DNA of 43,222 nt, taken from positions 1-43,222 of the IMG/VR virus record IMGVR_UViG_3300017653_000087, one strand, 5' to 3'. Source of the stretch: a virus (Duplodnaviria; Caudoviricetes). Positions 4,922-26,455 of this stretch are shown piece after piece. Every line of letters starts with the position of its first letter. Within the stretch, counting starts at the first letter, position 1. Below the pieces are notes generated by a model. That model was given only the letters and a program-made list of their open reading frames with translations. It did not search any database and had not been told where the DNA came from. A program made the translations under genes and the position numbers.

Positions 4922-7900
4922 ATGGACTTAGACAAACTACTCAAACGGATGCGGGAGCTCGGCGGTAACGTCGCCTCCTCATTCACCCAACCCAAACGAA
5001 CCAGCACCCTCAACCGAGCAAGTCAAAACACCCAGCGCGTCAAGCAGTCGATCGGGAACTTCCGCGCCAGCCCCAACACGCCAACCGTCTCGCAAGCGTT
5101 TCAAAGCTCAGTCCGTAACAACCCACTCTCGACGATGGCGCGAGGTCAGTACTTTGGTGATTCACGCATCGACCAGAAGATCGCACCGGTAACGCGACCG
5201 ATCGGGCAGTTCGGTGGCGGTGTGATCTCAGGACTCTCGTTAGGCTTTGTGAACCCTGTTGCTAATGCGCAACCCACCAACCGCTTCGAGCAGGGAGCCA
5301 ACATCGCCGGCAACATCATGGGGATGTTCAACCCCGTCAGTGCAGGGAACCAGATCCTCGGCCGTGTGGGAACGGCAGGGACCAGGCTGGGGACGAGTCT
5401 TGCGCTTCGTAGCGGTGTTCCATCAGCTGGTAAGGCGATCGGTGCTCTGGCTGGGGAAGTCGCACAGACCGGCACACTCATGAGTGCCTCAGCCCTCTCA
5501 GGACGCGATTTCAACCCGGTTACCGATCTTGCCTTTGGTCTCGGTACTCGTGGCGCTCTTGGGACGCTCTACAAGGGTCTCAGCAGGGGAGTCCCTAAGG
5601 GGTACTCACCACGCATCAACCGCATCATTCCGATGGATGGCTACGACACCCGTGAGGCCCTGGAGATCATCAACAGCAAGACCACCAGCAGAGCCGAGAA
5701 GCAGGACGCCTGGGTCACGCTCCAGAACATCGCAGAAGCTTATATGCCAGGCATCAAGAACTCGACCAATGCACAGGTGAAGAAAGCGGCCGAGGACTTC
5801 CTCACGCGTTTCCAGCGACAACAGGACAACTTCGACATTCCAAAGATGGGGATCAAAGGGGATGACTCCCCTCTCAGTCAAGGCACGCTCCGCTCTTCGG
5901 CCCTGACAGATTCACCCCGCTCGGGCAAGAGCCAGGTATCTGGGTCAGGTATGACCCAAGCAGACAACACCATGAACGTCGCACAAGAACGATTAACCGA
6001 CATACCAACATTCGGAAGCATAGACGAGCAGATACTCAAAAAGTATCCACAGGCAGACCCCATGATTGAAGAATTAGACAGAGTGATACAGGTACACCGA
6101 ATCAACTTGCCAAAAGATCAACAAGGCAAAGGAACTGGTACAAAGATAATAAATGAAATATTGGAGTATGCAGATCGCACAGGTAAGCGGGTGGAACTAA
6201 CCACAGACACAGGGTTTGGTTCTGATAAAGCACGACTAACTGATTTTTATAAAAGGTTTGGATTTTCAGAAAATCCTAGTTTGAAAAATGCACAGCCCTG
6301 GGAACGCCAACAAACCCACGAATTAGTCAGAGAGCCTCGTAATGTCGCACAACAGCAGATAGGCGACATAGCAGGCGACCTCGACGACATATCTGGAGCG
6401 ATGGGCTTTGCTGGTCGATCTGACAGCACGCTCAACGACCTGCGTGAGTGGGAACGCCAGATTAAACGCGAGACCATCACGCAACGCCAGAACAATCAGG
6501 CGAAACAACGTTCGTTTAACCAAACAATGAGGGTCGCTGACGAGAAGCTCACCAAAGCCTACAAGGGCGGCAAGATCAAGGAGACGACGCAGGGCTTTCC
6601 GAGCAAGGCACTCTCATCCAAAGACGTCCGCGACAAGGGCGCGTTTGCCTACCAGCGTGAAACCCTGCTCCGCAACATCGAGGATACCTTCAAAGGGCAG
6701 AGCCAGCAGGTCAAGCAGTACTTCCATGACCCGATCGTTGCCAACGAGACGGCCGCAACCAACTTCCGCAACGACCTCAGAACCCGACTCTCTGAGACAT
6801 TTAAGAGTCTGGGGATCACACGAGGGAGCAAGGAAGACTACGCAGCAGCCGACTACATCGAGGGCACGATCTCAGCAGACGAGCTGATGAAACGCTTCCC
6901 GGGCAAAGCACAAGAGATCATGCAGGCAGCAGAAGAGGGGCGCGCGGTTTACAAGAACCTGCTCAACCAGGTCAACGCCACGCTGACCAAGTTCGGCTAT
7001 GACCCGATCCCTGAACGCCAGAACTACGTGACCCACACCCGCCAGATCCAGACGCTCTCAGAGCAGATCGGCTCACTCTTCAACCTCTCAAAAGACAAGC
7101 TCCCACAGGCGATGGCAGGTATCAACCTGGACACGCAACCTGGTCGCCAGTTCTTCAAGTTCGGTCAACAGCGTCAGGGTGGCTCAACCCACGAGGGGCT
7201 GATCGGCGCGCTGGATAAGTACATCGATCCAGTTGCTAACCAGATCTATCACACCGAAGACATCCAGCGCGGTCGGGCGCTCCTGAAATACCTCCAGGAC
7301 TCGGCCGATCCGAGCGATACGAGGCTGTCCAACTTCACAAGCTACCTGCGCCAGTACGTCGACCATCTCTCAGGCAAGCAGAACATCATCGATCGGCCAT
7401 TTGAGAAGGTGTTTGGTCGCAACATGCTGGCAATCGGCAACAAGCTCCGCCAGCGGACCGGTGCCAACATGGTCGGTGGCTCGTTCTCCAGTGCGATCAC
7501 TAACTTCATCCCGTTCACCAACTCGCTGGCAACGACCTCAAAGCCAGCGGTTGCCAAGGGACTCTACGAGGCCGCACTCTCGCCGGCGACTGGCTCAACT
7601 ATGATCGACGGAGTACAAAGTGGCTTCCTGACTCGCCGGTTTCCCAAAGAACGGATCGGGTCAACCGTCTACACCAATATGCAGGGAGCAGCAGGAGCGC
7701 TCTTCAAATGGGTTGACCAATTCACCTCCAAAGCGATCGTGGCCGGCAAGTATCACGAGGGCATCGCCAAGGGACTTGATCCGCAGACGGCGATGGCTCA
7801 AGCCGACGAGTATGCGGCTCGTGCGTTATCTGATCGGTCGTTTGCACAGTCCCCGCTCCTGTTCAACTCGAAAGTGCTGGGAGCTGTGACGCAGTTCCAG

Positions 7901-9346
7901 AACGAGGTCAACAATCAGGTCTCATTCCTCTTCAAGGACATTCCCAACAATCTCGGTTACAACAAGGCGCAGGTGGCATCAGCTCTCGCGCAGTTTGCCG
8001 TCTACTCCTACGTCTTCAACGAGATGTATGAGCGCGTGACAGGTAGACGTCCACAACTAGACCCGATGAACGCAGGCCTGACGCTCTATAGCCAACTCCA
8101 GGAGGGTGCTGGAATCGGTGAGATCCTTGACCCGACTGACCAGTACAGTGCGGTTGGAGGCCTCGCCCAATCCCTGCCGTTCTCCTCTGTTGCGACCGGT
8201 GGTCGTATTCCGATCGGTGGCGCAATCCCTGACGTGGTTGGGCTTGCCAAGGGTGAGACTACACTGGGCAAGGAAGCAGTCAAACCCCTCGCCTACCTGT
8301 TGCCTCCGTTCGGTGGTGGACAGATCAAGAAGACACTGGAGGGGACTGACGCCTACAACCAGGGCTTCTCAGAAACCGCTACAGGCAATATCCGCTTCCC
8401 GATCGAGCAGAACTTTGGCAACCTGGCTCGGAGCGTGCTGTTTGGTCAGTACTCAACGCCAGAGGCACGCCAGTACTTTGAGAGTGACGGGAGGCCCCTC
8501 TCTGAGAACCAGTCGATGTACGTCAGGAACGCCCAAGACAAGGGCAACGCGTTTGCACGGATCGTTGCCAATCGGGAAGAGAGCAAAACGCTTGCCGAAC
8601 GCAAGGCCGAGATTGAGGAGGTCGGCGGGGTCTCAGCCGGCGACAACGAGATCATCTACATGACCGATGACGGCACGGTGGCAACCATCGACCTCTCCAA
8701 GTACGACAAGAAAGCAACCGGCCTCAAGAAATTCGAGCTGGAAGACGAGAAGATCGAGACCGCACGAAAGATCTACGCGATCGAGGACGAATCGATCACC
8801 GACGAGCAGAAAGCCGCCTACTACAAACGGCTGGGCTTCAAGGCAGAGGACGTCGAATACGACTACCTTGCCAACCAGGAGAACGACATCAAGAGCGCCT
8901 ACTTTACCAGTGAGTTTGGGGAGCTGGAGCACGATCAGCTGATCGAGACGCTCACAACCCTGCGTAAGCCATCCGTCTCCGGCAAGATCCCCGCAGCAGA
9001 CGGGGTGCTTGATGACCTCTACGAGGACGGGCTCATCAGTGACGCTGAGCGCAAAATGCTCAAGAAGATCGACTACGACAAGAACGGCAAGCTCAAGAGT
9101 GGGAGTGGTGGCAAGAAGTTCAGTGTCGCCGCACCCAAGGCGATCGGCACCGTCAGTGTCAAGCAGTCTGACCCTGTCAAGATCACGATGAACATTCCCA
9201 AAATGCAGGGCCTGAAACTGGCTCCGATGCCCGAGATCAGTGCACCCCCATTGACACGAGCACAAAATGTGTCTACAATATCAGTAGGCAATAGTCGTCC
9301 TGAACCGATCCGCGTCCGCAAGACGCAGGTGAGATTCGGACGCTAA
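4922..9346 (+). CDS. Large internal virion/DNA-ejection (polyvalent) protein with GNAT acetyltransferase insert
   Basis: 1474 aa; Gly/Ala-rich hydrophobic N-terminus; GNAT motif A (QQGKGTGTKII) and FYKRFGF; podovirus synteny. Confidence 0.7.
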   Translation: MDLDKLLKRMRELGGNVASSFTQPKRTSTLNRASQNTQRVKQSIGNFRASPNTPTVSQAFQSSVRNNPLSTMARGQYFGDSRIDQKIAPVTRPIGQFGGGVISGLSLGFVNPVANAQPTNRFEQGANIAGNIMGMFNPVSAGNQILGRVGTAGTRLGTSLALRSGVPSAGKAIGALAGEVAQTGTLMSASALSGRDFNPVTDLAFGLGTRGALGTLYKGLSRGVPKGYSPRINRIIPMDGYDTREALEIINSKTTSRAEKQDAWVTLQNIAEAYMPGIKNSTNAQVKKAAEDFLTRFQRQQDNFDIPKMGIKGDDSPLSQGTLRSSALTDSPRSGKSQVSGSGMTQADNTMNVAQERLTDIPTFGSIDEQILKKYPQADPMIEELDRVIQVHRINLPKDQQGKGTGTKIINEILEYADRTGKRVELTTDTGFGSDKARLTDFYKRFGFSENPSLKNAQPWERQQTHELVREPRNVAQQQIGDIAGDLDDISGAMGFAGRSDSTLNDLREWERQIKRETITQRQNNQAKQRSFNQTMRVADEKLTKAYKGGKIKETTQGFPSKALSSKDVRDKGAFAYQRETLLRNIEDTFKGQSQQVKQYFHDPIVANETAATNFRNDLRTRLSETFKSLGITRGSKEDYAAADYIEGTISADELMKRFPGKAQEIMQAAEEGRAVYKNLLNQVNATLTKFGYDPIPERQNYVTHTRQIQTLSEQIGSLFNLSKDKLPQAMAGINLDTQPGRQFFKFGQQRQGGSTHEGLIGALDKYIDPVANQIYHTEDIQRGRALLKYLQDSADPSDTRLSNFTSYLRQYVDHLSGKQNIIDRPFEKVFGRNMLAIGNKLRQRTGANMVGGSFSSAITNFIPFTNSLATTSKPAVAKGLYEAALSPATGSTMIDGVQSGFLTRRFPKERIGSTVYTNMQGAAGALFKWVDQFTSKAIVAGKYHEGIAKGLDPQTAMAQADEYAARALSDRSFAQSPLLFNSKVLGAVTQFQNEVNNQVSFLFKDIPNNLGYNKAQVASALAQFAVYSYVFNEMYERVTGRRPQLDPMNAGLTLYSQLQEGAGIGEILDPTDQYSAVGGLAQSLPFSSVATGGRIPIGGAIPDVVGLAKGETTLGKEAVKPLAYLLPPFGGGQIKKTLEGTDAYNQGFSETATGNIRFPIEQNFGNLARSVLFGQYSTPEARQYFESDGRPLSENQSMYVRNAQDKGNAFARIVANREESKTLAERKAEIEEVGGVSAGDNEIIYMTDDGTVATIDLSKYDKKATGLKKFELEDEKIETARKIYAIEDESITDEQKAAYYKRLGFKAEDVEYDYLANQENDIKSAYFTSEFGELEHDQLIETLTTLRKPSVSGKIPAADGVLDDLYEDGLISDAERKMLKKIDYDKNGKLKSGSGGKKFSVAAPKAIGTVSVKQSDPVKITMNIPKMQGLKLAPMPEISAPPLTRAQNVSTISVGNSRPEPIRVRKTQVRFGR
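9251..9279 (+). promoter_or_regulatory. sigma70-type promoter
   Basis: TTGACA-17-TACAAT. Confidence 0.7.
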
Positions 9347-12082: not shown

Positions 12083-12634
12083 ATGAAGAAGGAATGTAAC
12101 AACTGTAGGACCGAAATGATAAAGACACAGGCGCTTAGTCGTCACAATTGGGAGATTAAGAAGTTCTGCGGACATCGATGTGCTGCGCTATACCGCACTG
12201 CTAGTGGCGTTCTAAAGAACACTGGCCGCACTCATTTCGTTGTCGGACAAGTATCTCCTCGTAAAGGAACGACGACGTCAGATGAACACAAGGCAGCGAT
12301 ATCGCGTGCCAACAGAGGACGGCAAGCATGGAACAAGGGACTCTATGGTCTGAACGCTGGAGACAAGAACCCCAACTGGCGAGGCGGGAACAGTCAAAAC
12401 TATCTAATCCGTCGAACACAAGCTTATAAGGCTTGGAGAAAAGCTGTATTTGATCGGGATGACTACACCTGCCGAGTTTGCGGAGACTTTGGAACATACA
12501 TAACAGCCCACCATATCAAGAGTGTGGCTCGGTATCCGGAGCTGGCTCTGGAACTGTCTAACGGAGCAACACTATGTGAACCGTGCCATGCGCTGACAGA
12601 TAACTATAAAGGTAGAGAAAGGAGGATAGTCTAA
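12083..12634 (+). CDS. HNH endonuclease with NUMOD3-like motifs
   Basis: HKAAIS, AWNKGL, NPNWRGG, VFDRDDYTCxxC..HHIK..NGATLCxxCH. Confidence 0.85.
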   Translation: MKKECNNCRTEMIKTQALSRHNWEIKKFCGHRCAALYRTASGVLKNTGRTHFVVGQVSPRKGTTTSDEHKAAISRANRGRQAWNKGLYGLNAGDKNPNWRGGNSQNYLIRRTQAYKAWRKAVFDRDDYTCRVCGDFGTYITAHHIKSVARYPELALELSNGATLCEPCHALTDNYKGRERRIV

Positions 12635-15854: not shown

Positions 15855-16385
15855 ATGAACAAGTACACGACGATATACGCAGACCCACCGTGGATGGAGC
15901 GCGGTGCGGGGAAGATCAAGCGCGGAGCTGACAGACACTACCTACTCATGAAGACCTCAGCAATCATGAGTCTCCCAGTTCAGAACCTGGCAGCAGACAA
16001 CGCGCATCTGTATCTATGGGTCACCAATAACTTCCTGCCTGACGGGCTGGCAGTCATGCGAGCCTGGGGCTTTACCTATAAGACGTCAATCACCTGGGTA
16101 AAGGATAAGATGGGGCTCGGGCAGTATTTCAGAGGGATGACCGAGCACTGCCTCTTCGGGGTGCGTGGCAGTCTGTCCTACAAGACCATCGACGGCCGGC
16201 GTCAACAAGGACGAACAGTGATTCATGCTCCTCGCGGAGTTCACTCCCAGAAGCCAGACGCGATGCGGGAGATGATTGAGAAAGTCAGCTATCCAAACTA
16301 CCTCGAGCTGTTTGCTCGAAGACCAGCTCCTGGCTGGGACGTCTGGGGCAACGAGGTCGAGTCCGACCTGGAACTCGCAGCCTGA
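15855..16385 (+). CDS. MT-A70 family N6-adenine methyltransferase
   Basis: IYADPPW, LYLWVTN, TEHCLFG, HSQKPD, LELFAR, WGNE. Confidence 0.92.
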   Translation: MNKYTTIYADPPWMERGAGKIKRGADRHYLLMKTSAIMSLPVQNLAADNAHLYLWVTNNFLPDGLAVMRAWGFTYKTSITWVKDKMGLGQYFRGMTEHCLFGVRGSLSYKTIDGRRQQGRTVIHAPRGVHSQKPDAMREMIEKVSYPNYLELFARRPAPGWDVWGNEVESDLELAA

Positions 16386-17433: not shown

Positions 17434-18183
17434 ATGATAGTAGCAACAGCGTCGCAAAAAGGAGGGGTCGGGAAGACGGCAACGGCACTCAACGTGTCGG
17501 CGTGTCTTGGCCTGCGCACGCTCCTTGTCGACCTGGACCCACAAGGGGCCTGCTCGATCTCTCTGGGGATCGACGCCGACAGCCTTGAAACGACCATCTA
17601 CGAGGCGCTCACCGAGCGAGCCAGTATCCGCGATGCGATTCTCCCGACATCCTACGGATTCGATCTTGCCCCGTCAAACATTGATTTGGCTGAGGCTGAA
17701 CTTGCGCTCGCTGCAACACCAGGCCGAGAGTTCGCTCTGAAGCGAGCACTCGCACCTGTCGCCGGCGAGTACAGCCACATCGTGATTGATACCCCACCCA
17801 CGTTGGGCCTGCTGACGATGAACGCCTTTGCGGTAGCTGATAGCGTCCTGATCCCGGTCTCAACGCAGCTGCTCTCACTCCGAGGCCTGGCTACCCTCAT
17901 GGACACGATCGAGAAGATCAGGCGCTACTCGATCAACCCTGACCTTAAGGTGTTGGGCATCCTGCCGACCAAGTATGACGGACGGACGATCCACGCTCGT
18001 CAGGTGCTCGAGTACCTGGGCAACTTCGCCCACGAAAACCATATTCGGCTGTTCAGCCCCGTGAGGTCCACGGTGCGCTTTGATGAGGCAGTCAACGAGC
18101 ACACACCCTATGTGCTGCTGTACCCCGACGATGAGGCCTCACACGCCTACGAGGAGGTCGCTTCCTATGTCCGCCAGACGTAA
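17434..18183 (+). CDS. parA: ParA/Soj partition ATPase
   Basis: KGGVGKT deviant Walker A, LLVDLDPQG, IVIDTPP; TACAAT 7 nt before the ATG suggests a leaderless transcript. Confidence 0.95.
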   Translation: MIVATASQKGGVGKTATALNVSACLGLRTLLVDLDPQGACSISLGIDADSLETTIYEALTERASIRDAILPTSYGFDLAPSNIDLAEAELALAATPGREFALKRALAPVAGEYSHIVIDTPPTLGLLTMNAFAVADSVLIPVSTQLLSLRGLATLMDTIEKIRRYSINPDLKVLGILPTKYDGRTIHARQVLEYLGNFAHENHIRLFSPVRSTVRFDEAVNEHTPYVLLYPDDEASHAYEEVASYVRQT

Positions 18184-18439
18184 GTCCAAGGAGCTTGATA
18201 CCAGTCTATTCCGTACTCCAGAACACATCGAACAGGGGCAGACCCCAGCCTCTCGGGATATGTCCCCTGTCGCAGAGCAAGCAGAGCCACGATTGAAGCG
18301 TGCGAGCTTTGACCTGCGCGAAGAACAGATACTCGACCTGAACGACCTCAAGACCAAGCTCGCTAGACAAGGTATCAAGCGCCGCATCTCAGACCTGGCG
18401 CAAGAAGCCATCGACGACCTGCTTGCCAAATACGGGTAA
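18167..18439 (+). CDS. Small ParA partner (type Ib, RHH/ParG-like adaptor)
   Basis: Overlaps parA stop; GAGGAGG upstream; flexible N-terminus then RASFDL...ISDLAQEAIDDLL. Confidence 0.65.
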   Translation: MSARRKSKELDTSLFRTPEHIEQGQTPASRDMSPVAEQAEPRLKRASFDLREEQILDLNDLKTKLARQGIKRRISDLAQEAIDDLLAKYG

Positions 18440-18484
18440 GGCGCTACACTGGACGTGAGATAGCCTTGCGTCTAGGTAAGACTT

Positions 18485-19207
18485 GTGACAGATAGTCAAC
18501 GGTTTGAGGGGTTTGACCGCCCTCGCTATACACCGACGCCAGATGCTCTTTTCGATGAGCTCCTGCCTGACCTGTCGCTCGTCGAGCTACGGGTACTCCT
18601 CTATATCATCCGTCGCACGTTCGGCTTCAAGAAAGACTCAGACGCGATCTCCGTTGCTCAAATGGAGTCTGGCATCACCACCCGCGACGGTCGCCGGCTT
18701 GATCGTGGGACTGGGTTGTCCACGGCGGGTGTCAGAAAAGGTCTGCGTGGCCTGCTCGATCGTGGCGTGATTGTGGCAATCGCCAACACCGATGAGACCG
18801 GAGCAAGCCTCCCCACCACCTACGCACTACGTTTCAAAGACGAGGGAACACACACGTCACAGGAGGGGGTTTCCACCCGTACACCCTCCCCTGTTACAGG
18901 CGTAGACCCCTCCCCTGCACAGGTGAACACCCACAAGAAACAGTTACAAGATACAGAGGAACAAGAGGATTCGAAATTCGAGTTTGAATCGTTTCTAAGA
19001 GATTTTGCTCGGGAGTTTCGGGATCGCGCACCGATCAGGAGCACCCTGAAACGAGCACAGAACCTCCTCGATGGCATGGACTACCACGATGCGCGGGATG
19101 CCCTCTACGAGGCCCGTAGACGCACCCGTGAGGCCACTAACGTCAAGAACCGCACCGCCTACTTCTTCGCCGTCCTGGAGGAGCTCGTCAACAATCCGAC
19201 TTCCTGA
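18485..19207 (+). CDS. Replication initiator (lambda O-like winged helix N-terminus)
   Basis: YTPTPDALFDELL..LSLVELRVLLYIIRRTFGF..DAIS; low-complexity middle containing DNA repeats. Confidence 0.75.
   Translation: MTDSQRFEGFDRPRYTPTPDALFDELLPDLSLVELRVLLYIIRRTFGFKKDSDAISVAQMESGITTRDGRRLDRGTGLSTAGVRKGLRGLLDRGVIVAIANTDETGASLPTTYALRFKDEGTHTSQEGVSTRTPSPVTGVDPSPAQVNTHKKQLQDTEEQEDSKFEFESFLRDFAREFRDRAPIRSTLKRAQNLLDGMDYHDARDALYEARRRTREATNVKNRTAYFFAVLEELVNNPTS
18859..18923. repeat. Candidate iterons/origin inside the initiator gene
   Basis: CCCTCCCCTG at 18884 and 18908, each followed by ACAGG; inverted-like ACAGGAGGGGGT at 18859. Confidence 0.45.
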
Positions 19208-19465
19208 TCGATCTCCTACCCGGTTTCCTTGCCCTGACGCTGAATATCAGCCCTTGCGCGTCGGGTGACATGTCGGTAACTTACCCTTATCTCTCCTGTG
19301 AGTACAGACTGTGAACGGGTACCGGATGTATCCGCTCCGACATTTCAATCACTCCCGGCGCCGAGGCCTCGCGTTCACTGAAATGTCTCCGCTCTTGGCT
19401 GCGCACAGGTATGCGAAGCAGGAGCACCCTGCTCCGCAACCTATAATGATGGGAGGTGATAACTA

Positions 19466-19648
19466 ATGAAGACATACGTCATGTTTCGGATCTACAAGAT
19501 CCAGGCGCCAGACGATCCGTCGGCACGAGTCGCATTCCGAGAGATCGAGGGCGACGGCCGACTTGAGGATTATCTCGTGTCAGTCTCGATCAAGGAAGAA
19601 CAGCCACGTGGCCTGCTTGCCGAGGTCAAGCGGCAGATCACGAAGTAG
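19466..19648 (+). CDS. Hypothetical 60-aa protein
   Basis: GGAGGT SD and upstream TATAAT. Confidence 0.6.
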   Translation: MKTYVMFRIYKIQAPDDPSARVAFREIEGDGRLEDYLVSVSIKEEQPRGLLAEVKRQITK

Positions 19649-19782
19649 TCGTGAACCAGCCTACGGGGGTACGCCCCTCGTAGCGCCGGGCTCGCCTGAG
19701 TCGCAGTGAGCAAGCTCACCGCACCTCTTGACGGCTCGCCCTGAGAGACAGGTCGAGTCGAATCGAGTCGAAAGGAGACCTT

Positions 19783-20256
19783 GTGGATGACCCGATTCTG
19801 TTTCCAGGACGAATCATGGTAACTGTGGTTCGTCGGTGTCTACGAGACATCAACGGGACCCATATCTATCAACTTGGTGGTCCAGGGCACCAGATCAAAA
19901 TGGTAGCTAACGCGGAGGAGGGCGAGAACGCGCTGAGACGGATTGACTCGCTCTCAGGTGGACTGATGGTCAACTTCCTGGGGCAGTTCATGCACTGGAA
20001 GCTCCCGCCACCGAGCGAGATCACAAGACCTGATGTGCTGGAGATGCTGCGCAACAACCCCCGTGACCGGATGCGTACAACGCTTCAAGGTGGGATTCAG
20101 GAAGCACTTTCTCGGTACCGACCTGACTTTCACTACATCCAGGCGTATCTTCTCGCTCCAGAGCCCTACCTTGAGGGCTGGCGGATGGACCTCAAGACTG
20201 GCCGTGTCTGGCAGGTGCCAGTCGAGGTGACTGGAATAGTCGACTGGGAATGGTGA
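19783..20256 (+). CDS. Hypothetical protein
   Basis: AAGGAG SD; overlaps the ATPase start. Confidence 0.55.
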   Translation: MDDPILFPGRIMVTVVRRCLRDINGTHIYQLGGPGHQIKMVANAEEGENALRRIDSLSGGLMVNFLGQFMHWKLPPPSEITRPDVLEMLRNNPRDRMRTTLQGGIQEALSRYRPDFHYIQAYLLAPEPYLEGWRMDLKTGRVWQVPVEVTGIVDWEW

Positions 20257-22139
20257 TGTTCCTTGGAACAGACCTGGACAACACGTACCGCGACATCTCA
20301 ATCCCCGAGCAGACCCGCCGGCAGGGCTTCTATATCGTTGGCAGGCGTGGGATGGGGAAGTCCACACTCCTTGAGAGTCTGATCTGCGAGGACCTCTACT
20401 CAATGTCAGGCGTCGGTGTCATCGACCCACACGGCAGTCTGATCGATGCCGTGATTACTCGCATCCCTGAGTCACGCGTAAATGACGTCGTCTATCTGGA
20501 CGCCTCCGATCCCGAGTACGCCTTTGGGTTGAACCTGTTTGATACCGGAGGACTGACGAGCGAGATTGCCAGAAGCCGCAGTGTCGACGGTGTTGTTCAG
20601 ACGTTCAAGAAGGTCTGGGGAGTTGGAGAAGACGCCTCCTGGGGACCGCTCCTTGAGGATCTGCTCGCAAACGTCACCCACACTTTGATGGCGGGTGAGG
20701 GCATGACGATGGCTGAGATTCCCGCCCTGCTCTATAAGCCCAACTTCCGAAAGAGGCTCGTCGACAGTCTTGAGAACTGGGTCGTGCGCGACTTCTGGGA
20801 GTATGACTGGGATCCACTGCGTAACGAGCAGCAGATCCGCGATCGCCGCTCGACGACCAACAAGGTGAGAGCGTTTCTGCGTGACCCCGTGCTGTTGCAC
20901 ATCCTCGGACAGACCCAAACGACGGTGGATTTTCGCGCTGTCATGGATGAGCGCAAGATCCTGCTGGTCAAGCTCCCCTTAGGCCCTGACGTGAGTGAAA
21001 CGGCCGTTAGCTTGCTTGGTTCACTGATGATCGGACAGCTCCTGACGGCCGTGATGGGGCGAGAGCCAGGCGGAGACGCACCACACTTCGCGCTCTACTG
21101 CGATGAGTTCCAGCGCTTTGCCACCCCTGCCTTTGCCACGCTGATCGATGAGACACGCAAGTACCGCGTCTCAACGACGATTGCTCACCAGCGCCTGGAC
21201 CAGCTGGATGATGCGTATCGGTCCTCAGCGATGGGATCAAGCAACTTCGCACTGTTCCAACTCACGGGAGACGATGCCGCCGAGTTTGCGTTGCAGTTTG
21301 ACGTTACGCCTCCTGAGGTCGAGCCAGACGTCAACCAGTGGGAGCAGGTGAAGCGAGGCCTGCACCCTAACCCCAAGATGGCCGAACTCCTGGGTCTCTT
21401 GAACACAGGGCTCGACAGGGTCCGCACCGTTGCCGAGTGGTTCAGTGGCGTCCGCTACGACTACAAGCGTCGAGACGGCACCTATACGCCGTTTTACAGC
21501 GACAACGTCGACTATCACGCGGTTGCCCGTCTCATGGAGTGGCTTGACGAGCGCATCAGTCAGTTCTTTGCGCAGAGCCTGCCAGTTCGGAGCTACGACG
21601 AGCTAGAAGCCCTGCACGAGCAGGTGTTTGCCGATCTCACGGCTCAGCTGGAGCGGCTCTACCAGGTTGAATACTACGATCCAAAACCGCCCAAAGACGT
21701 CCGGGAAGGTCTCTCACAGACCAAAGCAAGTTACCTCTTCATGGCGCAAGACCGACTGATGCCAGCCATCGGGAAGCTCTACTACGCCATCAAAGAGGAG
21801 CCGATCAGAACAGGGAACAGACGGACGGTTGCTGACACGAGAGCTGAGTTTGCTAACCGCCTGGCAACGCTCTCCCCGCGCACGCTGGCTGTCAGATTCT
21901 GGGACGGGAGCACCTACCAGCAGGGCATCGTCAAGATGACCGATGTCCTGCCAGGGATCGAGAACCCCGAAAAGACAGCGGCAATTCGTATCGTCAGTCG
22001 AGAGCGCTACTGTCGCCGGCGACAGGATGTTGACCGAGAGATCAGACAGCGACGGGAGACACTCGAGCAGGAGCCTAACGAGCCAGAACCAGCACTCGCC
22101 GAGCAGCCTCCCCTGCCGATTCGCAGGCGTGACTCCTGA
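20250..22139 (+). CDS. VirD4/TraD/HerA-like P-loop ATPase (coupling-protein-like) 1
   Basis: Walker A GRRGMGKST, VIDPHG, Walker B LYCDEFQ, ETRKY..IAHQ. Confidence 0.85.
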   Translation: MVMFLGTDLDNTYRDISIPEQTRRQGFYIVGRRGMGKSTLLESLICEDLYSMSGVGVIDPHGSLIDAVITRIPESRVNDVVYLDASDPEYAFGLNLFDTGGLTSEIARSRSVDGVVQTFKKVWGVGEDASWGPLLEDLLANVTHTLMAGEGMTMAEIPALLYKPNFRKRLVDSLENWVVRDFWEYDWDPLRNEQQIRDRRSTTNKVRAFLRDPVLLHILGQTQTTVDFRAVMDERKILLVKLPLGPDVSETAVSLLGSLMIGQLLTAVMGREPGGDAPHFALYCDEFQRFATPAFATLIDETRKYRVSTTIAHQRLDQLDDAYRSSAMGSSNFALFQLTGDDAAEFALQFDVTPPEVEPDVNQWEQVKRGLHPNPKMAELLGLLNTGLDRVRTVAEWFSGVRYDYKRRDGTYTPFYSDNVDYHAVARLMEWLDERISQFFAQSLPVRSYDELEALHEQVFADLTAQLERLYQVEYYDPKPPKDVREGLSQTKASYLFMAQDRLMPAIGKLYYAIKEEPIRTGNRRTVADTRAEFANRLATLSPRTLAVRFWDGSTYQQGIVKMTDVLPGIENPEKTAAIRIVSRERYCRRRQDVDREIRQRRETLEQEPNEPEPALAEQPPLPIRRRDS

Positions 22140-22157
22140 TATAATGAATATGCCCTT

Positions 22158-22880
22158 ATGTTAAATGAATCTGAAACTCGCATCGTGCAATTGATCGGCC
22201 GGATGTACTTCCTGACGGCAGGTCAAGTGGTCAGGCGCTACTACAGCGCTGGCTCCAAGACCTTAGTTGGCTCCTATCTCAAGGCACTCACTGAGAGTGG
22301 CTATCTCACCCGCCGTGGCTTCAAGCCCAGCCTCCAGGGTGGCTCGTATCCCTACGTTTACTCACTCTCTCCTAAAGGCAGACGCGAGTTGGTGAGGACT
22401 GGATACCTCCCAAACCAGCGTTACCGCCCCAGTGAGGAGGAGGCGCTCAGGACATACCCCGACCACACGCTTGCCATCAATGACGTGCTGATTGCCGGCG
22501 AACTGAGTGGCAAGCTGACGAGGTTCGTCCACGAGCGCACGATCAACCGGATCAGACCGCCGTACCGTCCTGATGGATACCTGGAGTGTGGCAACACCGG
22601 TTTCCTGCTGGAGGTCGATCGTGACACCGAGGCCTTCGAGTTCTGGGATCGGAAGATCGCCAGGCTGTGTGCCTTTGTGGGGTCAGATAACTACACGAAG
22701 TACTTCGAGCTCTTTGAGGGCGTGCTCGTGGTCGTACCAGACCAGAGCCGTCTGGATCTGCTGACACGCTGGACGAAGGCGAGCCTTGATCGTCTTGGAC
22801 TACCCGACTGGCTGCAACTGTTCAGATTCCTGACTCATGCAGAGGCCTGTGATCCGGAGCGCCTTGCTCAACACCTATGA
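22158..22880 (+). CDS. Replication-relaxation family protein (Replic_Relax)
   Basis: FLTAGQV, YSLSPKG, HTLAINDV, RPDG, LLEVDR.TE. Confidence 0.85.
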   Translation: MLNESETRIVQLIGRMYFLTAGQVVRRYYSAGSKTLVGSYLKALTESGYLTRRGFKPSLQGGSYPYVYSLSPKGRRELVRTGYLPNQRYRPSEEEALRTYPDHTLAINDVLIAGELSGKLTRFVHERTINRIRPPYRPDGYLECGNTGFLLEVDRDTEAFEFWDRKIARLCAFVGSDNYTKYFELFEGVLVVVPDQSRLDLLTRWTKASLDRLGLPDWLQLFRFLTHAEACDPERLAQHL

Positions 22881-25201
22881 CCAAACCACTGACACTACTG
22901 CTCGGACGAGTACCTGACCCACCCATCTGGGCCAGACTCTTTCCACAGCGGGTTCAGCTGCCGATTACGTCTGCCGGCAACCACATGCACGTAATCGGAA
23001 AAATCGGTTGTCTACACCCAGACACGCCGATATTCGATCCTGTCGATCGAACCACGCGATCGGTCTACCAACGCTATCTGCTGGGTAAGCCGTTCCATGT
23101 CCTGGCTCTCGACGAGCATAACGAGCCTGTGATTGCTAGAGCTGAGGCTCCTGTCGAGTTCACGAAGGAGCGCATGTATCGGGTTAGGTTCAGTAATGGG
23201 GAGTCAGTTACGGTCACTGGGGAGCACCGTCTGTTTGTGGGGTCTGGCTACCGGACAGTCGACGAGCTCTCCACCATCGTTTCCGACCCTCAGAGATCTT
23301 GCGCTTGTGATCCTCAGAGAACGTGCGACCTCGAATCCGCGAGAATCCTTCTTCCGTCCATTTCGGACAGCGACCTGCAAGCGTCACTCGGAGATGCTCA
23401 GCGTTGGAAGCAAACAGTCGTAAGTTTTCAGGACGGTTGTCGTCAGGTATCCCATTTATGTGGTCAACGACCTCAGTCGGGAGCAGATACCGGCCGAGCT
23501 TCTTCTCCATCACGAGACGGTGCTCAGAGACCTGATTCTTGCGGGTGCGATACGGGTGATCTGGAGCATAGACGTAGACATAGCCCTTCACACGGTGAAC
23601 ACCACGTTTCCAAGCTGGATTGCGGTCTCCCTTCGAATACTCCGACCTCGGGCGGATCTCCACGCCAGCATCGAGCAAGTGCCGGCGAACGGTTACACTC
23701 TTCCCGCCAACACGTTTCGATACCTGAAGCATGCTTAGACCACTCTGATACAGGCGGATTGCCTCCTGTATCTTCTCGGTCTTCCATTTTCGATGTGAAC
23801 TTCTCATGTGATTATGTCAATGGTAGCACAGGCGCTACCCAGTGTCAATTAGTGTCTATTGAGGAAGTTGAACCATCGATCTACTACGACTTCCACGTGC
23901 CGAGGTACCAGAACTACTGGGCGTGTGGGGTGTTCCACCACAACAGCGGGAAGAGCTACTTCCTTGCTACCTACTACCTCGCACTGATCAAGGCGGGGAT
24001 CGGGGTGACGCTGATCGACCCCCACGGGGATCTCTCCAACCTGATCCTGAGATTGCTCGTGCAGGAGGGTAACGAACAAACGTTAAAAGATACGATCTAT
24101 CTTGATTTTCAACGCGCACACGAGCGAGGGCGGTATCTCCCGCTCAACGTGCTCAAGCAACCTGGGGACAGGACTCGGATCGCCCAGAACGTCAAAGAGG
24201 CGTTTCACCGTGCCTGGCCGTCGCTCGCCGGAGGCGTTGCCCCACGCTTTGACAAGCTGGTCCTCAACGGGGTGAAGGCGCTTGCTAGTGCCAACGAGCG
24301 ACTCCCCGAACTGTCGTGGTTCCTGACGAACCTGCCGTTTCGAGCGGAGGTTCTGGCACATGAGACCGACAGTCGGGTGCTTCGTCACTGGAAACACTGG
24401 TACGACACGCTGACCCAACGCCAGCAGACCGAATACGCCGATTCGACCCTCTCACGGGTAGATCTCCTCGCCTTTGACGAGGTCCTGCGCTACTCCCTCG
24501 GCCACGAGGAACTGGCGCTGGACTTCCGCTCAGTCATGGATAGACGGCAGAACGTCCTACTGAATCTCTCGGGCCTCGCTGATGAGACCCAGCGCCTGAT
24601 CGGGTCGCTATTCACCGTGATGTACGAGCAAGCGGCGAAAGGTCGAGCAGACACCCATGAACGGCCGACGCATGTGCTGATGATCGACGAGTTCGCGTCA
24701 TTCAGTGCACAGTCTGAGTCAGCCATGCAGAAGATGCTGTCTGAAACCCGCAAATTCGGGTTGTTTCTGGTGATGGCGCATCAAAACTGGTCGCAGGCCT
24801 CCAGCAAGCTCAAAGGTGCGATGGGCAATACCAAGATCAAGGTGGCGTTTCAACTGGACCGAGAGGATGCCGAGATCACGGCAATGACGTTTGCTGACAT
24901 CGATCCGGTAACGACCCACACCAGAGACGGAGCAGTCGGTTACTCCAAGAGTGTTGCCGATCAGATCGAGGAGACAGTCAAGGAGCTCATGCAACTCCCC
25001 GAACGCCATGCTCTGGTGAAGTTTCCGGATCTCAAAGTCAACCCACTTGTTACCGAGGAAGTCAAAGACCAGCACGTCGACACCACTACGATCGAACGGG
25101 AGCAGCTGGAGCGCTGGTTCAAGCATCCAACGGTGGTGCTTCCCGAACCGACACGGCCGGTGGTGAAGCTCCCGATTCGCAGTCGTTTGCCTCAGGATTG
25201 A
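22877..25201 (+). CDS. VirD4/HerA-like ATPase 2, intein-containing (462 aa after splicing)
   Basis: Spliced Walker A GKIG|SGKS, LIDPHG, Walker B LMIDEF, ETRKF..MAHQ. Confidence 0.88.
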   Translation: MTKPLTLLLGRVPDPPIWARLFPQRVQLPITSAGNHMHVIGKIGCLHPDTPIFDPVDRTTRSVYQRYLLGKPFHVLALDEHNEPVIARAEAPVEFTKERMYRVRFSNGESVTVTGEHRLFVGSGYRTVDELSTIVSDPQRSCACDPQRTCDLESARILLPSISDSDLQASLGDAQRWKQTVVSFQDGCRQVSHLCGQRPQSGADTGRASSPSRDGAQRPDSCGCDTGDLEHRRRHSPSHGEHHVSKLDCGLPSNTPTSGGSPRQHRASAGERLHSSRQHVSIPEACLDHSDTGGLPPVSSRSSIFDVNFSCDYVNGSTGATQCQLVSIEEVEPSIYYDFHVPRYQNYWACGVFHHNSGKSYFLATYYLALIKAGIGVTLIDPHGDLSNLILRLLVQEGNEQTLKDTIYLDFQRAHERGRYLPLNVLKQPGDRTRIAQNVKEAFHRAWPSLAGGVAPRFDKLVLNGVKALASANERLPELSWFLTNLPFRAEVLAHETDSRVLRHWKHWYDTLTQRQQTEYADSTLSRVDLLAFDEVLRYSLGHEELALDFRSVMDRRQNVLLNLSGLADETQRLIGSLFTVMYEQAAKGRADTHERPTHVLMIDEFASFSAQSESAMQKMLSETRKFGLFLVMAHQNWSQASSKLKGAMGNTKIKVAFQLDREDAEITAMTFADIDPVTTHTRDGAVGYSKSVADQIEETVKELMQLPERHALVKFPDLKVNPLVTEEVKDQHVDTTTIEREQLERWFKHPTVVLPEPTRPVVKLPIRSRLPQD
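23214..23807 (-). CDS. HTH-HNH-NUMOD3 homing endonuclease nested antisense inside the intein
   Basis: IRLYQSGLSMLQVSKRVG (HTH), NPAWKRG, EHRLVMEKKLGR..VDHINGIPDDNRPENL (HNH), SEDHKRKISE. Confidence 0.9.
   Translation of the reverse strand: MRSSHRKWKTEKIQEAIRLYQSGLSMLQVSKRVGGKSVTVRRHLLDAGVEIRPRSEYSKGDRNPAWKRGVHRVKGYVYVYAPDHPYRTRKNQVSEHRLVMEKKLGRYLLPTEVVDHINGIPDDNRPENLRLFASNAEHLRVTLAGRCPKWTEEGFSRIRGRTFSEDHKRKISEGRKRWWRARRLSGSQTPQTDGAPQ
23820..23848 (-). promoter_or_regulatory. sigma70-type promoter for the antisense HNH
   Basis: TTGACA(23848-43)-17-TACCAT(23825-20), 12 nt upstream of the ATG at 23807. Confidence 0.7.
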
Positions 25202-25226
25202 GAAGCAACGAACAAACGTTTATAAT
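25198..25226 (+). promoter_or_regulatory. sigma70-type promoter upstream of the ardC leader
   Basis: TTGAGA-17-TATAAT. Confidence 0.65.
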
Positions 25227-25229
25227 GGT

Positions 25230-25465
25230 GATACCTGGCAGGGAAACGCAATCGAGCATCGGTGGTGTGACTCCAACGGACACATCACCCGCTCGACGTT
25301 TGAGATGTGCGGTGATGAAGGTTTCGGACCTAATGTGAGCGTTGACCGGAACATGCTCAGAGGCATCACCGCACTTCTTAGATCGACGTTTGAGATCTGG
25401 GGTGGTGGGGAAACGCTTTTCCACAAGCGAGAGTTTGTGGGTCCAATCATCACCTCAGTTCCCAG
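25230..25465 (+). ncRNA. Candidate structured RNA / ssDNA leader
   Basis: Multiple G-U-containing stems, a GAGA tetraloop, a UUCG-containing loop and a repeated TCGACGTTTGAGAT. Confidence 0.4.
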
Positions 25466-26455
25466 ATGGAGACCAGTCCCTATCGACCAACACCCGAGGA
25501 AGCCAAGCCTCAGGGTGACCCACGTATCGACGCAGCCATGCAGTTGCTTGAGGCTGGCATCGACCGCATCCACGACTCTGAGGAGTTCAAGCGCTACCTC
25601 GAGTTCTCCTCAAAATTTCACAAATACTCACCACGGAATAGCCTATTAATCTGGATGCAGAAGCCTGACGCGACCGACGTCATGGGCTACGGCTCCCGTG
25701 ACGGTCGCACAGGCTGGAAGTCGGTGGGTCGGCAGGTTCGCGCCGGCGAGAAAGCGATCAAGATCTTTGCTCCCCTGCTGAAAAAGGAAGTCGATATCCA
25801 GACCGGTGAGCAGGTCGAGGTCTTACGTGGGTACAAGCTGGTGAACGTCTTTGATGTGAGTCAGACAGACGGCGACGAGCTTCCGAAACGACCGAGTCCA
25901 CGCGAGATCGAATCGTCGACTGAGGCGGGTCACCGCATGTTTACCGCCAACTGGGACTGGCTGGCGACTAAAGGCGTGCCCGTGTTTCGACGCGAAGTCC
26001 CTGGCATCCCCGGCGCACGCGGGAGCTTCAGCCCAGGGCGTGAGGGGAGCGGTGCCAAGATCTACGTGAGAAGCGACATGGCCATCGACATGCAGGCTAA
26101 GACGCTTGCCCATGAATCGGCTCACATGGTTGCTGACCACCGCTGGCATATGCCCAAAGAAGAAGTCGAGCTCGAAGCGGAAGCCGCAGCGTTTGTGACG
26201 AGCTACCACTTCGGGGTGGATACCTCCTCATACAGCTTCGACTATATAACGCACTGGTCCCATGACCGCGATCTGTTCAAGCAGAAGTTGACCACGATCC
26301 AGCAACTGTCAAAGACGCTGATTGATGGCATCGGACAACACTATCCAGATGCCCTCTCAGCCCCTCCAGAATTCGATTCTAGCCCTGTTTACCTGTCAGA
26401 AGGACTACCACACCGTCTGCCGTCGCGAGACGAGTTAGGAGGTGGTACGGCATGA
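25466..26455 (+). CDS. ardC: ArdC-like ssDNA-binding antirestriction protein with metalloprotease domain
   Basis: FHKYSPRNSLLI..Q, WKSVGRQVRAGEKAIKI, VFDVSQTDG, AHESAH, EAEAAAF..S..Y. Confidence 0.85.
   Translation: METSPYRPTPEEAKPQGDPRIDAAMQLLEAGIDRIHDSEEFKRYLEFSSKFHKYSPRNSLLIWMQKPDATDVMGYGSRDGRTGWKSVGRQVRAGEKAIKIFAPLLKKEVDIQTGEQVEVLRGYKLVNVFDVSQTDGDELPKRPSPREIESSTEAGHRMFTANWDWLATKGVPVFRREVPGIPGARGSFSPGREGSGAKIYVRSDMAIDMQAKTLAHESAHMVADHRWHMPKEEVELEAEAAAFVTSYHFGVDTSSYSFDYITHWSHDRDLFKQKLTTIQQLSKTLIDGIGQHYPDALSAPPEFDSSPVYLSEGLPHRLPSRDELGGGTA

Follow-up and report, generated by a model that had tools for sequence, protein, structure and literature searches.

An antisense HNH endonuclease gene within a Walker A intein of a tailed phage, and the intein family to which it belongs

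The DNA analysed here, the viral record IMGVR_UViG_3300017653_000087 (Caudoviricetes), is 43,222 nucleotides (nt) long and is hereafter called the window. It carries a gene for a VirD4/TraD-like P-loop ATPase, which is interrupted within its Walker A motif by an intein, and the strand opposite to this intein encodes a helix-turn-helix (HTH)–HNH endonuclease. A preliminary description, made from the letters alone, had proposed that a complete intein carries here its homing endonuclease as a separately promoted antisense gene. The features concerned are collected in Table 1.

The intein and the gene on its opposite strand

The residues of class-1 splicing are all present, namely C1-LHPDT at the start, T70-G-E-H73 in block B, YYD294FHVP in block F, the terminal H311-N312 and the serine at position +1, and both C1 and H73 are invariant among 18 aligned inteins. 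The NCBIfam profile intein_Nterm matches with 27.2 bits (cut-off 24.5), and Pfam Intein_splicing matches with an E value of 1.7e-7, yet under its gathering score. The AlphaFold model is confident over residues 1-92 and 281-312, and its per-residue confidence score (pLDDT) lies below 50 over residues 97-276. The best Foldseek match of this model is the Mtu RecA intein (E 1.3e-6, root-mean-square deviation (rmsd) 1.3), which identifies the HINT fold; the search gave 21 matches at E≤0.001, and those listed are inteins throughout. Taken out of the precursor, the intein would leave an ATPase of 462 amino acids (aa) with the restored junction GKIG/SGKS, the slash marking the insertion point. Host homologues 66-72% identical to it have an uninterrupted Walker A motif, and the in-frame insert is thus missing from them. 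The window's host frame is free of stop codons, which sets it apart from a fractured gene or a split intein. The splicing residues and the intein_Nterm score therefore bear out the claim of a complete intein splitting this motif.

The sense frame between the two splicing regions had been taken for about 150 codons of stop-free sequence devoid of motifs. It is indeed stop-free; its length is nearer to 180 residues, and the HNH core encoded on the other strand has left a recognisable imprint in it. No nuclease family was found in the sense frame by the domain-profile scans, so the intein is not one with an endonuclease in frame. A conserved sense motif, LP[ST]I, was considered as a splicing strand and rejected, since it lies in the region of pLDDT below 50 and is the reverse of the HNH motif P-x-W-T-x-E-G.

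The antisense protein consists of an HTH at about residues 10-46 and an HNH core at about residues 67-144. The HNH_3 profile is matched by all 18 aligned members of the group, in which H116, N124, N128, N135 and H138 are invariant. The modelled residues 67-144 superpose on I-HmuI (PDB 1u3e), their sole match among the matches listed, with a middling Z score of 6.7 (below 8), an rmsd of 3.0 and 22% identity over 71 aligned residues; Foldseek found no match for the HNH model at E≤0.001, and PDB sequence searches with the HNH protein returned HTH-like matches only. The HTH and HNH parts of the protein were thus correctly named at the outset. The NUMOD3 part was not: Pfam NUMOD3 has no match in the window's HNH protein up to E 1, nor does it appear among the commonest 25 of 45 families for the 18 members, and a basic helix at residues 165-184 merely resembles it. 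The tail of the HNH gene overlaps block B, as had been noted, because the stop codon of the gene falls opposite intein residues 69-70. When codons were shuffled with the HNH protein held fixed, the probability of an open sense frame was 0.0005; with the intein protein held fixed, that of an open antisense frame was 0.0055.

Table 1. Features of the locus, neighbouring genes and selected relatives (positions are those of the window unless a locus is named)
Feature	Position	Strand	Basis or remark
Class-1 intein, 312 aa, at GKIG/SGKS of Walker A	23009..23944	+	splicing residues, intein_Nterm, HINT fold model
N-terminal splicing region, residues 1-92 (C1; block B T70-x-x-H73)	23009..23284	+	pLDDT 90-98
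Sense-frame insert, residues 97-276, stop-free, predicted unstructured	23297..23836	+	pLDDT under 50; antisense-HNH imprint profile
C-terminal splicing region, residues 281-312 (block F D294, H311-N312, then Ser+1)	23849..23944	+	motifs, structure model
HTH-HNH endonuclease gene, 197 aa	23807..23214	-	HNH_3 43.2 bits (cut-off 24.8); weak N-terminal HTH
Predicted sigma70-type promoter, TTGACA-17-(TG)TACCAT	23848..23820	-	10/12 match plus TG
Host gene, VirD4/TraD-like P-loop ATPase precursor, 774 aa	22877..25201	+	stop-free; TraG-D_C above cut-off
Replic_Relax-family relaxase gene, directly upstream of host gene	22158..22880	+	family match
Intein-free paralogous VirD4-like ATPase	20250..22139	+	27% identity to spliced product over 351 aa
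AAA ATPase with intein	L117:223-1293		6 sense stops, intact antisense HNH, GAGG-ATG before C-intein
Ymer terminase with intein	L072:984-3248	-	GenBank: hypothetical protein, no HNH called
PHS3 terminase with intein	L073:1053-3179	-	GenBank: HNH plus shortened terminase

A family with one antisense phase, selected on both strands

Relatives were gathered with the HNH sequence and with alignment queries in genome, viral and metagenome scans, one of which contributed the best 80 of 169 matches. The HNH query gave 71 viral loci, 30 of which lie antisense inside open frames of 670-1035 aa, all in the same phase as in the window. Altogether 187 loci including the window were collected (L171, which equals the window, was left out); both intein ends were found in 134, and the loss of two at contig ends (L007 and L162) left 132. 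At 97% identity these represent 103 distinct inteins, comprising 71 with a whole antisense HNH gene, 6 with a partial one and 26 mini-inteins. The search for further inteins with an antisense HNH, which the preliminary description had suggested, was therefore productive, and the phase is identical in all 71 full inteins. In the subset gathered with intein queries (74 distinct), all 44 inteins of at least 269 aa hold the antisense HNH, whole in 43 cases and partial in one. A search of 1.84 billion protein representatives returned 314 matches; the best 150 of them comprise 34 short inteins, 7 incomplete ones and 109 long ones, every one of which shows the HNH imprint in the sense frame; this share and the preceding one are biased upward because the queries themselves contained the imprint. 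Searched with the window intein alone, cultured phages and plasmids gave no tblastn match, and viral contigs gave none in a single-sequence scan. Two loci, L014 and L138, were unclear or cut and were kept out of the free-standing set; at L014:2001-2426 the HNH relative faces two open antisense frames of 184 and 263 codons and shows no intein match.

The hosts are diverse. Pfam names the host for 14 of 40 scanned C-exteins, these being terminase large subunits, AAA ATPases, clamp-loader subunits and an AAA_19 protein. Putative TraD-like hosts are recognised by similarity to the window's second ATPase, and the labels DnaB-like, primase-helicase and SMC-like are a tentative reading of motifs. In 85 of the 103 inteins the insertion point precedes x-G-K of Walker A; it follows G-K in 12 and lies elsewhere in 6. 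Plaque-forming carriers exist among cultured phages, in the Walker A motif of the terminase: eight records of Pectobacterium and Dickeya phages of the genus Ymer and the Pseudoalteromonas phage PHS3, with the intein and antisense-HNH layout read in the DNA for Ymer and PHS3. The insertion site is empty in a related Klebsiella phage; with terminase alleles of both kinds at hand in cultured phages, homing can be put to the test. The main text of the Ymer paper contains neither the word 'intein' nor 'HNH'; in a large intein family that has escaped annotation, as in the Ymer and PHS3 terminases, a layout regarded as rare is the usual one.

Throughout the family the third codon position of the HNH gene coincides with the second position of the sense frame, and the ratio of nonsynonymous to synonymous change (dN/dS or pN/pS) was compared between the two frames, as had been proposed. 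Over seven pooled pairs, of nine computed, pN/pS is 0.12 for the HNH and, on the identical stretch of bases, 3.8 for the sense frame, and 238 of 322 differences fall on third positions of the HNH; between the window and L166, dN/dS is 0.10 and 3.6, respectively. Therefore, the HNH sequence is conserved by purifying selection and the sense insert drifts. Sense-frame stops in homologues had been named as evidence that would speak against the proposal. The 71 embedded HNH cores contain two such stops where 213 are expected, both in the apparently split intein of L117, whereas the same frame of 36 free-standing HNH relatives contains 171 (141 expected). In addition, a sense stop is unavoidable wherever phenylalanine stands before I, M, T, N or K, and this pairing is seen in 0 of 99 embedded cases versus 14 of 45 free-standing ones. 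From this purging of stops we infer full-length translation of the precursor and a need for the host protein. The locus offers a natural example of about 600 bp coding on both strands in which selection can be measured.

The promoter predicted for the antisense gene was assessed by comparing the antisense strand of the last 60 codons of each intein with shuffles that keep the intein amino acids, using approximate sigma70 weights and leaving out L117. The window's promoter exceeds its synonymous shuffles (p=0.015) and both hexamers are retained in L166, which agrees with the initial view of a separately promoted gene; the mini-intein L168 is without the -10 box and the ATG. The promoter offset is equal in the window, L166 and L167. 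Promoter scores at p≤0.05 were obtained for 32 of 70 full inteins, 3 of 6 partial forms, 2 of 26 mini-inteins and 4 of 68 extein controls. Of 69 first HNH ATGs, 41 have a Shine-Dalgarno-like match in front of them, compared with 32 of 698 control ATGs; the C-terminal end of the family inteins is thus enriched in antisense promoter and ribosome-site matches. The window, L166 and L167 have no Shine-Dalgarno match before the HNH ATG, which stands 12, 12 and 9 nt past the -10 box, and for these three the short distance predicts a near-leaderless message. A hairpin over the -10 box was also considered, with a z score of 1.12 that is not significant.

Homing, history and competing explanations

We favour, with a probability of roughly 0.75, the reading that the antisense HNH protein is the separately promoted homing nuclease of the intein, which would splice out of its precursor while the HNH marks empty Walker A alleles for repair. 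According to this reading, the sense strand would yield the ATPase precursor, and the unstructured insert would be discarded with the excised intein. A convergent antisense promoter at the C-terminal end of the intein would give rise to a separate, I-HmuI-like HNH protein; this would nick or cut the Walker A region of an intein-free copy, and repair from the occupied copy would bring in the whole intein. Historically, the backwards entry of a free-standing HNH gene into a mini-intein would have happened once or on a few occasions, the joint unit would have spread among the Walker A motifs of many nucleoside triphosphatases (NTPases), and the HNH gene would have been lost by deletion many times, the intein sometimes becoming split.

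The distances in the HNH-core tree correlate with those in the splicing-domain tree (r 0.55, p 0.001, n=71), and the nearest HNH neighbour is found among the three nearest splicing domains in 46 of 71 cases, where 3 are expected; therefore, the two parts travel together. This bears on the most serious competitor, which sees in the HNH an active, selfish nuclease cutting competing phage DNA elsewhere or loosely, with the intein as a mere safe harbour that rides along by co-conversion. Such an explanation can point to the free-standing relatives, some of which fall among the embedded HNHs on the tree, and to the expression signals that the HNH gene has of its own. It is nevertheless unlikely, given that the HNH keeps step with the splicing domain in many host genes, that its phase is fixed in all 71 full inteins and that its loss leaves clean mini-inteins, as in the ordinary intein cycle.

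A benefit to the phage itself appears less probable still. Here the antisense unit would be kept because convergent transcription or the HTH protein tunes the host NTPase, or because the nuclease hinders co-infecting phages, homing being secondary or at an end. Mini-inteins are scattered among full forms on the tree (25 changes versus 27.7 when shuffled), therefore the HNH is dispensable; moreover, the hosts are unrelated NTPases, and the nearest host homologues of the window are mostly intein-free. The strong purifying selection on the HNH and the conserved convergent promoter would suit any kept function, this one included, and all eight Ymer-genus records are occupied, with no empty allele among them. 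The third alternative, a chance shadow or a dead relic in a decaying intein, has six partial HNH relics of the family in its favour and can be set aside as highly improbable, given the HNH_3 score above cut-off, the invariant residues, the low probabilities of the two open frames and above all the HNH dN/dS against L166, which largely refutes it.

Returning to the homing-nuclease reading, remnants of the HNH are present in 5 of 26 mini-inteins and in all 6 partial forms, exclusively in the family phase. The exteins of L166 and L168 are 97% identical, and the intein of L168 (158 aa) corresponds to that of L166 (347 aa) with an internal deletion; by this comparison L168, the closest mini-intein, is to be read as a deletion product of the full form and not as its precursor. 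L117 is an apparent natural split intein derived from the family, judging from its sequence. Because full, partial, mini and split forms coexist, one lineage suffices for testing both the model in which splicing came first and the endonuclease invaded later and the way in which split inteins arise; new mini- and split inteins and HNH enzymes can be drawn from the family. On the tree, embedded and free-standing HNHs cluster by type (7 label changes versus 30 shuffled). The preliminary description had proposed that a free-standing HNH gene invaded a mini-intein in reverse orientation. The free-standing origin is upheld by the 36 relatives with stops in the frame concerned; the invasion itself did not occur at the window locus, the layout there being old and common to a wide family. 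More tentatively, and in our estimate with slightly less than an even chance, one old backwards invasion may have founded a family specialised in the Walker A loops of unrelated NTPases, with the nuclease expressed from a promoter and ribosome site on the reverse strand of the intein's C-terminal end, so that homing would be timed independently of the host gene, and with the convergent layout continually giving rise to mini-inteins through deletion and to natural split inteins through sense stops.

As regards mobility, occupancy is patchy: empty host alleles are 66-72% identical to the window host, and one allele at 67% is occupied. Between the window and the occupied L166 the splicing domain is 73-78% identical and the extein 49%. 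Among 119 host homologues none matches the N-intein and two begin within a C-intein, a count over proteins of at most 732 aa in which occupied alleles are therefore underrepresented. The intein DNA is more alike than every tested flank in 8 of 8 metagenome pairs of full inteins and in Ymer-Pappous, and is not so in Ymer-Koroua or in any of 3 mini-intein pairs. A patch of differences between Ymer and Koroua, running from inside the intein to +168, was considered as a trace of co-conversion and dropped; a second patch at +978 to +1056 indicates ordinary mosaicism.

All together, the antisense unit is real, selected on both strands and likely functional. Several points weigh against its role as the homing nuclease of the intein. 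Splicing, the antisense transcript, its protein and cleavage are deduced rather than observed. A single HNH lineage facing Walker A sites of very different DNA would have to change its specificity often, and the tracking of the two trees shows shared descent and indicates no target site. The greater identity of the intein over its flanks is confounded, because double coding itself slows change. The window's promoter taken by itself is at chance level in a plain scan (1 match versus 0.7 expected), and 38 of 70 full inteins fail to beat their own shuffles in the promoter test. Finally, seven free-standing HNHs lie inside the branch that holds 69 of the 71 embedded ones, in a poorly resolved tree (a quick tree of 98 columns with weak support), so that a single origin of the embedded HNH is not established by it.

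Known systems and genome setting

Canonical bifunctional inteins reportedly carry a LAGLIDADG or HNH endonuclease in frame (Dalgaard, 1997). The window intein shares with them the HINT domain, the class-1 residues, the endonuclease DNA between blocks B and F and the insertion in Walker A. Unlike in these inteins, the nuclease lies outside the protein that is spliced, which uncouples its expression from that of the host gene. I-HmuI, a nicking HNH enzyme encoded in an intron, has its HTH at the C-terminus; the predicted model of HNH residues 67-144 shows a middling match to its fold, and the HTH of the window protein is N-terminal. Antisense cases in the Synechocystis DnaX and a Chloroflexus SpoVR-like protein are said to have been noticed by Gorbalenya in 1998 and Gogarten in 2002.

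The architecture had been presented in the preliminary description as undescribed, a claim that does not hold: antisense LAGLIDADG and antisense VSR-like inteins are reported by Gosselin, Arsenault and Gogarten (bioRxiv 10.1101/2025.01.02.630785), who also cite the older DnaX and SpoVR-like cases. An out-of-frame endonuclease VII type is described there as well, HNH is given in frame only, and the authors propose the same invasion model, with nucleotide-binding sites as a route between hosts. The common trait is an intact endonuclease open reading frame (ORF) lying antisense inside a contiguous intein. The differences are that the window nuclease combines an HTH with an I-HmuI-like HNH in place of LAGLIDADG or VSR-like enzymes, that the antisense layout, rare in their set, is the rule in the present family and across many Walker A NTPases, and that the ORF enters the N-terminal splicing domain in 61 of 68 cases, whereas their second ORFs typically lie outside that domain. 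The present family, moreover, encodes a predicted promoter and ribosome site antisense at the C-terminal end. No antisense HNH intein was found in the literature searched, which covered few subscription journals; the supplementary list of 784 inteins of Gosselin et al. may bear on this absence. The architecture is thus known in print for other nucleases, and what appears to be new is the HNH type, the scale of the family and the many Walker A hosts.

Dassa et al. (2009, PMC2677866) describe fractured genes with split inteins whose endonucleases are GIY-YIG and Vsr-like, an HNH fracture being predicted only. By its sequence, L117 resembles these in having a free-standing endonuclease gene between the N- and C-intein coding regions, and the window intein differs from them in being contiguous. 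ShiLan, as portrayed by Arsenault et al. (2025, PMC11855218), is an out-of-frame HNH insertion in phage methylases with signs of homing and no detectable splicing domain. It likewise hides an HNH ORF overlapping a stop-free host frame; unlike this alternate-frame insertion, the window has a full intein, with the HNH on the opposite strand.

The genome is that of a circular 43-kb phage with a 123-nt terminal repeat, and the intein described is the only one of the family in it. A relaxase gene comparable to that upstream of the host gene adjoins the intein in L166, L167, L168 and L175. Contigs from three public DNA runs, possibly the source of the window DNA, cover the intein without a letter difference, unbroken in two of the three, and no joint skipping the intein was found in these runs. 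In the public protein set, the 449-aa product P0004 (23852-25201, plus strand) begins within the intein, as do P0155 and P0194, so gene callers appear to truncate such host genes.

Positions 17434-26455 of this complete circular tailed phage, which has SU10-like capsid, portal and terminase genes, form a plasmid-like block with ParA, phage replication protein O, the two VirD4/TraD-like ATPases around the Replic_Relax relaxase and a protein with an ArdC N-terminal domain; the genome may be a phage-plasmid, or the block may be a captured mobilisation module. A second, free-standing HNH gene (12083-12634, plus strand) shows Pfam HNH, cysteine pairs and a weak NUMOD3, and gives no match to the family HNH profile. 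On the same strand, an ORF of 1474 aa (4922-9346) among the likely virion genes has as its sole match a GNAT acetyltransferase over residues 393-450, an MT-A70 methyltransferase gene is located at 15855-16385, and C-methyltransferase and glycosyltransferase genes are found at 445-2845, near the capsid region.

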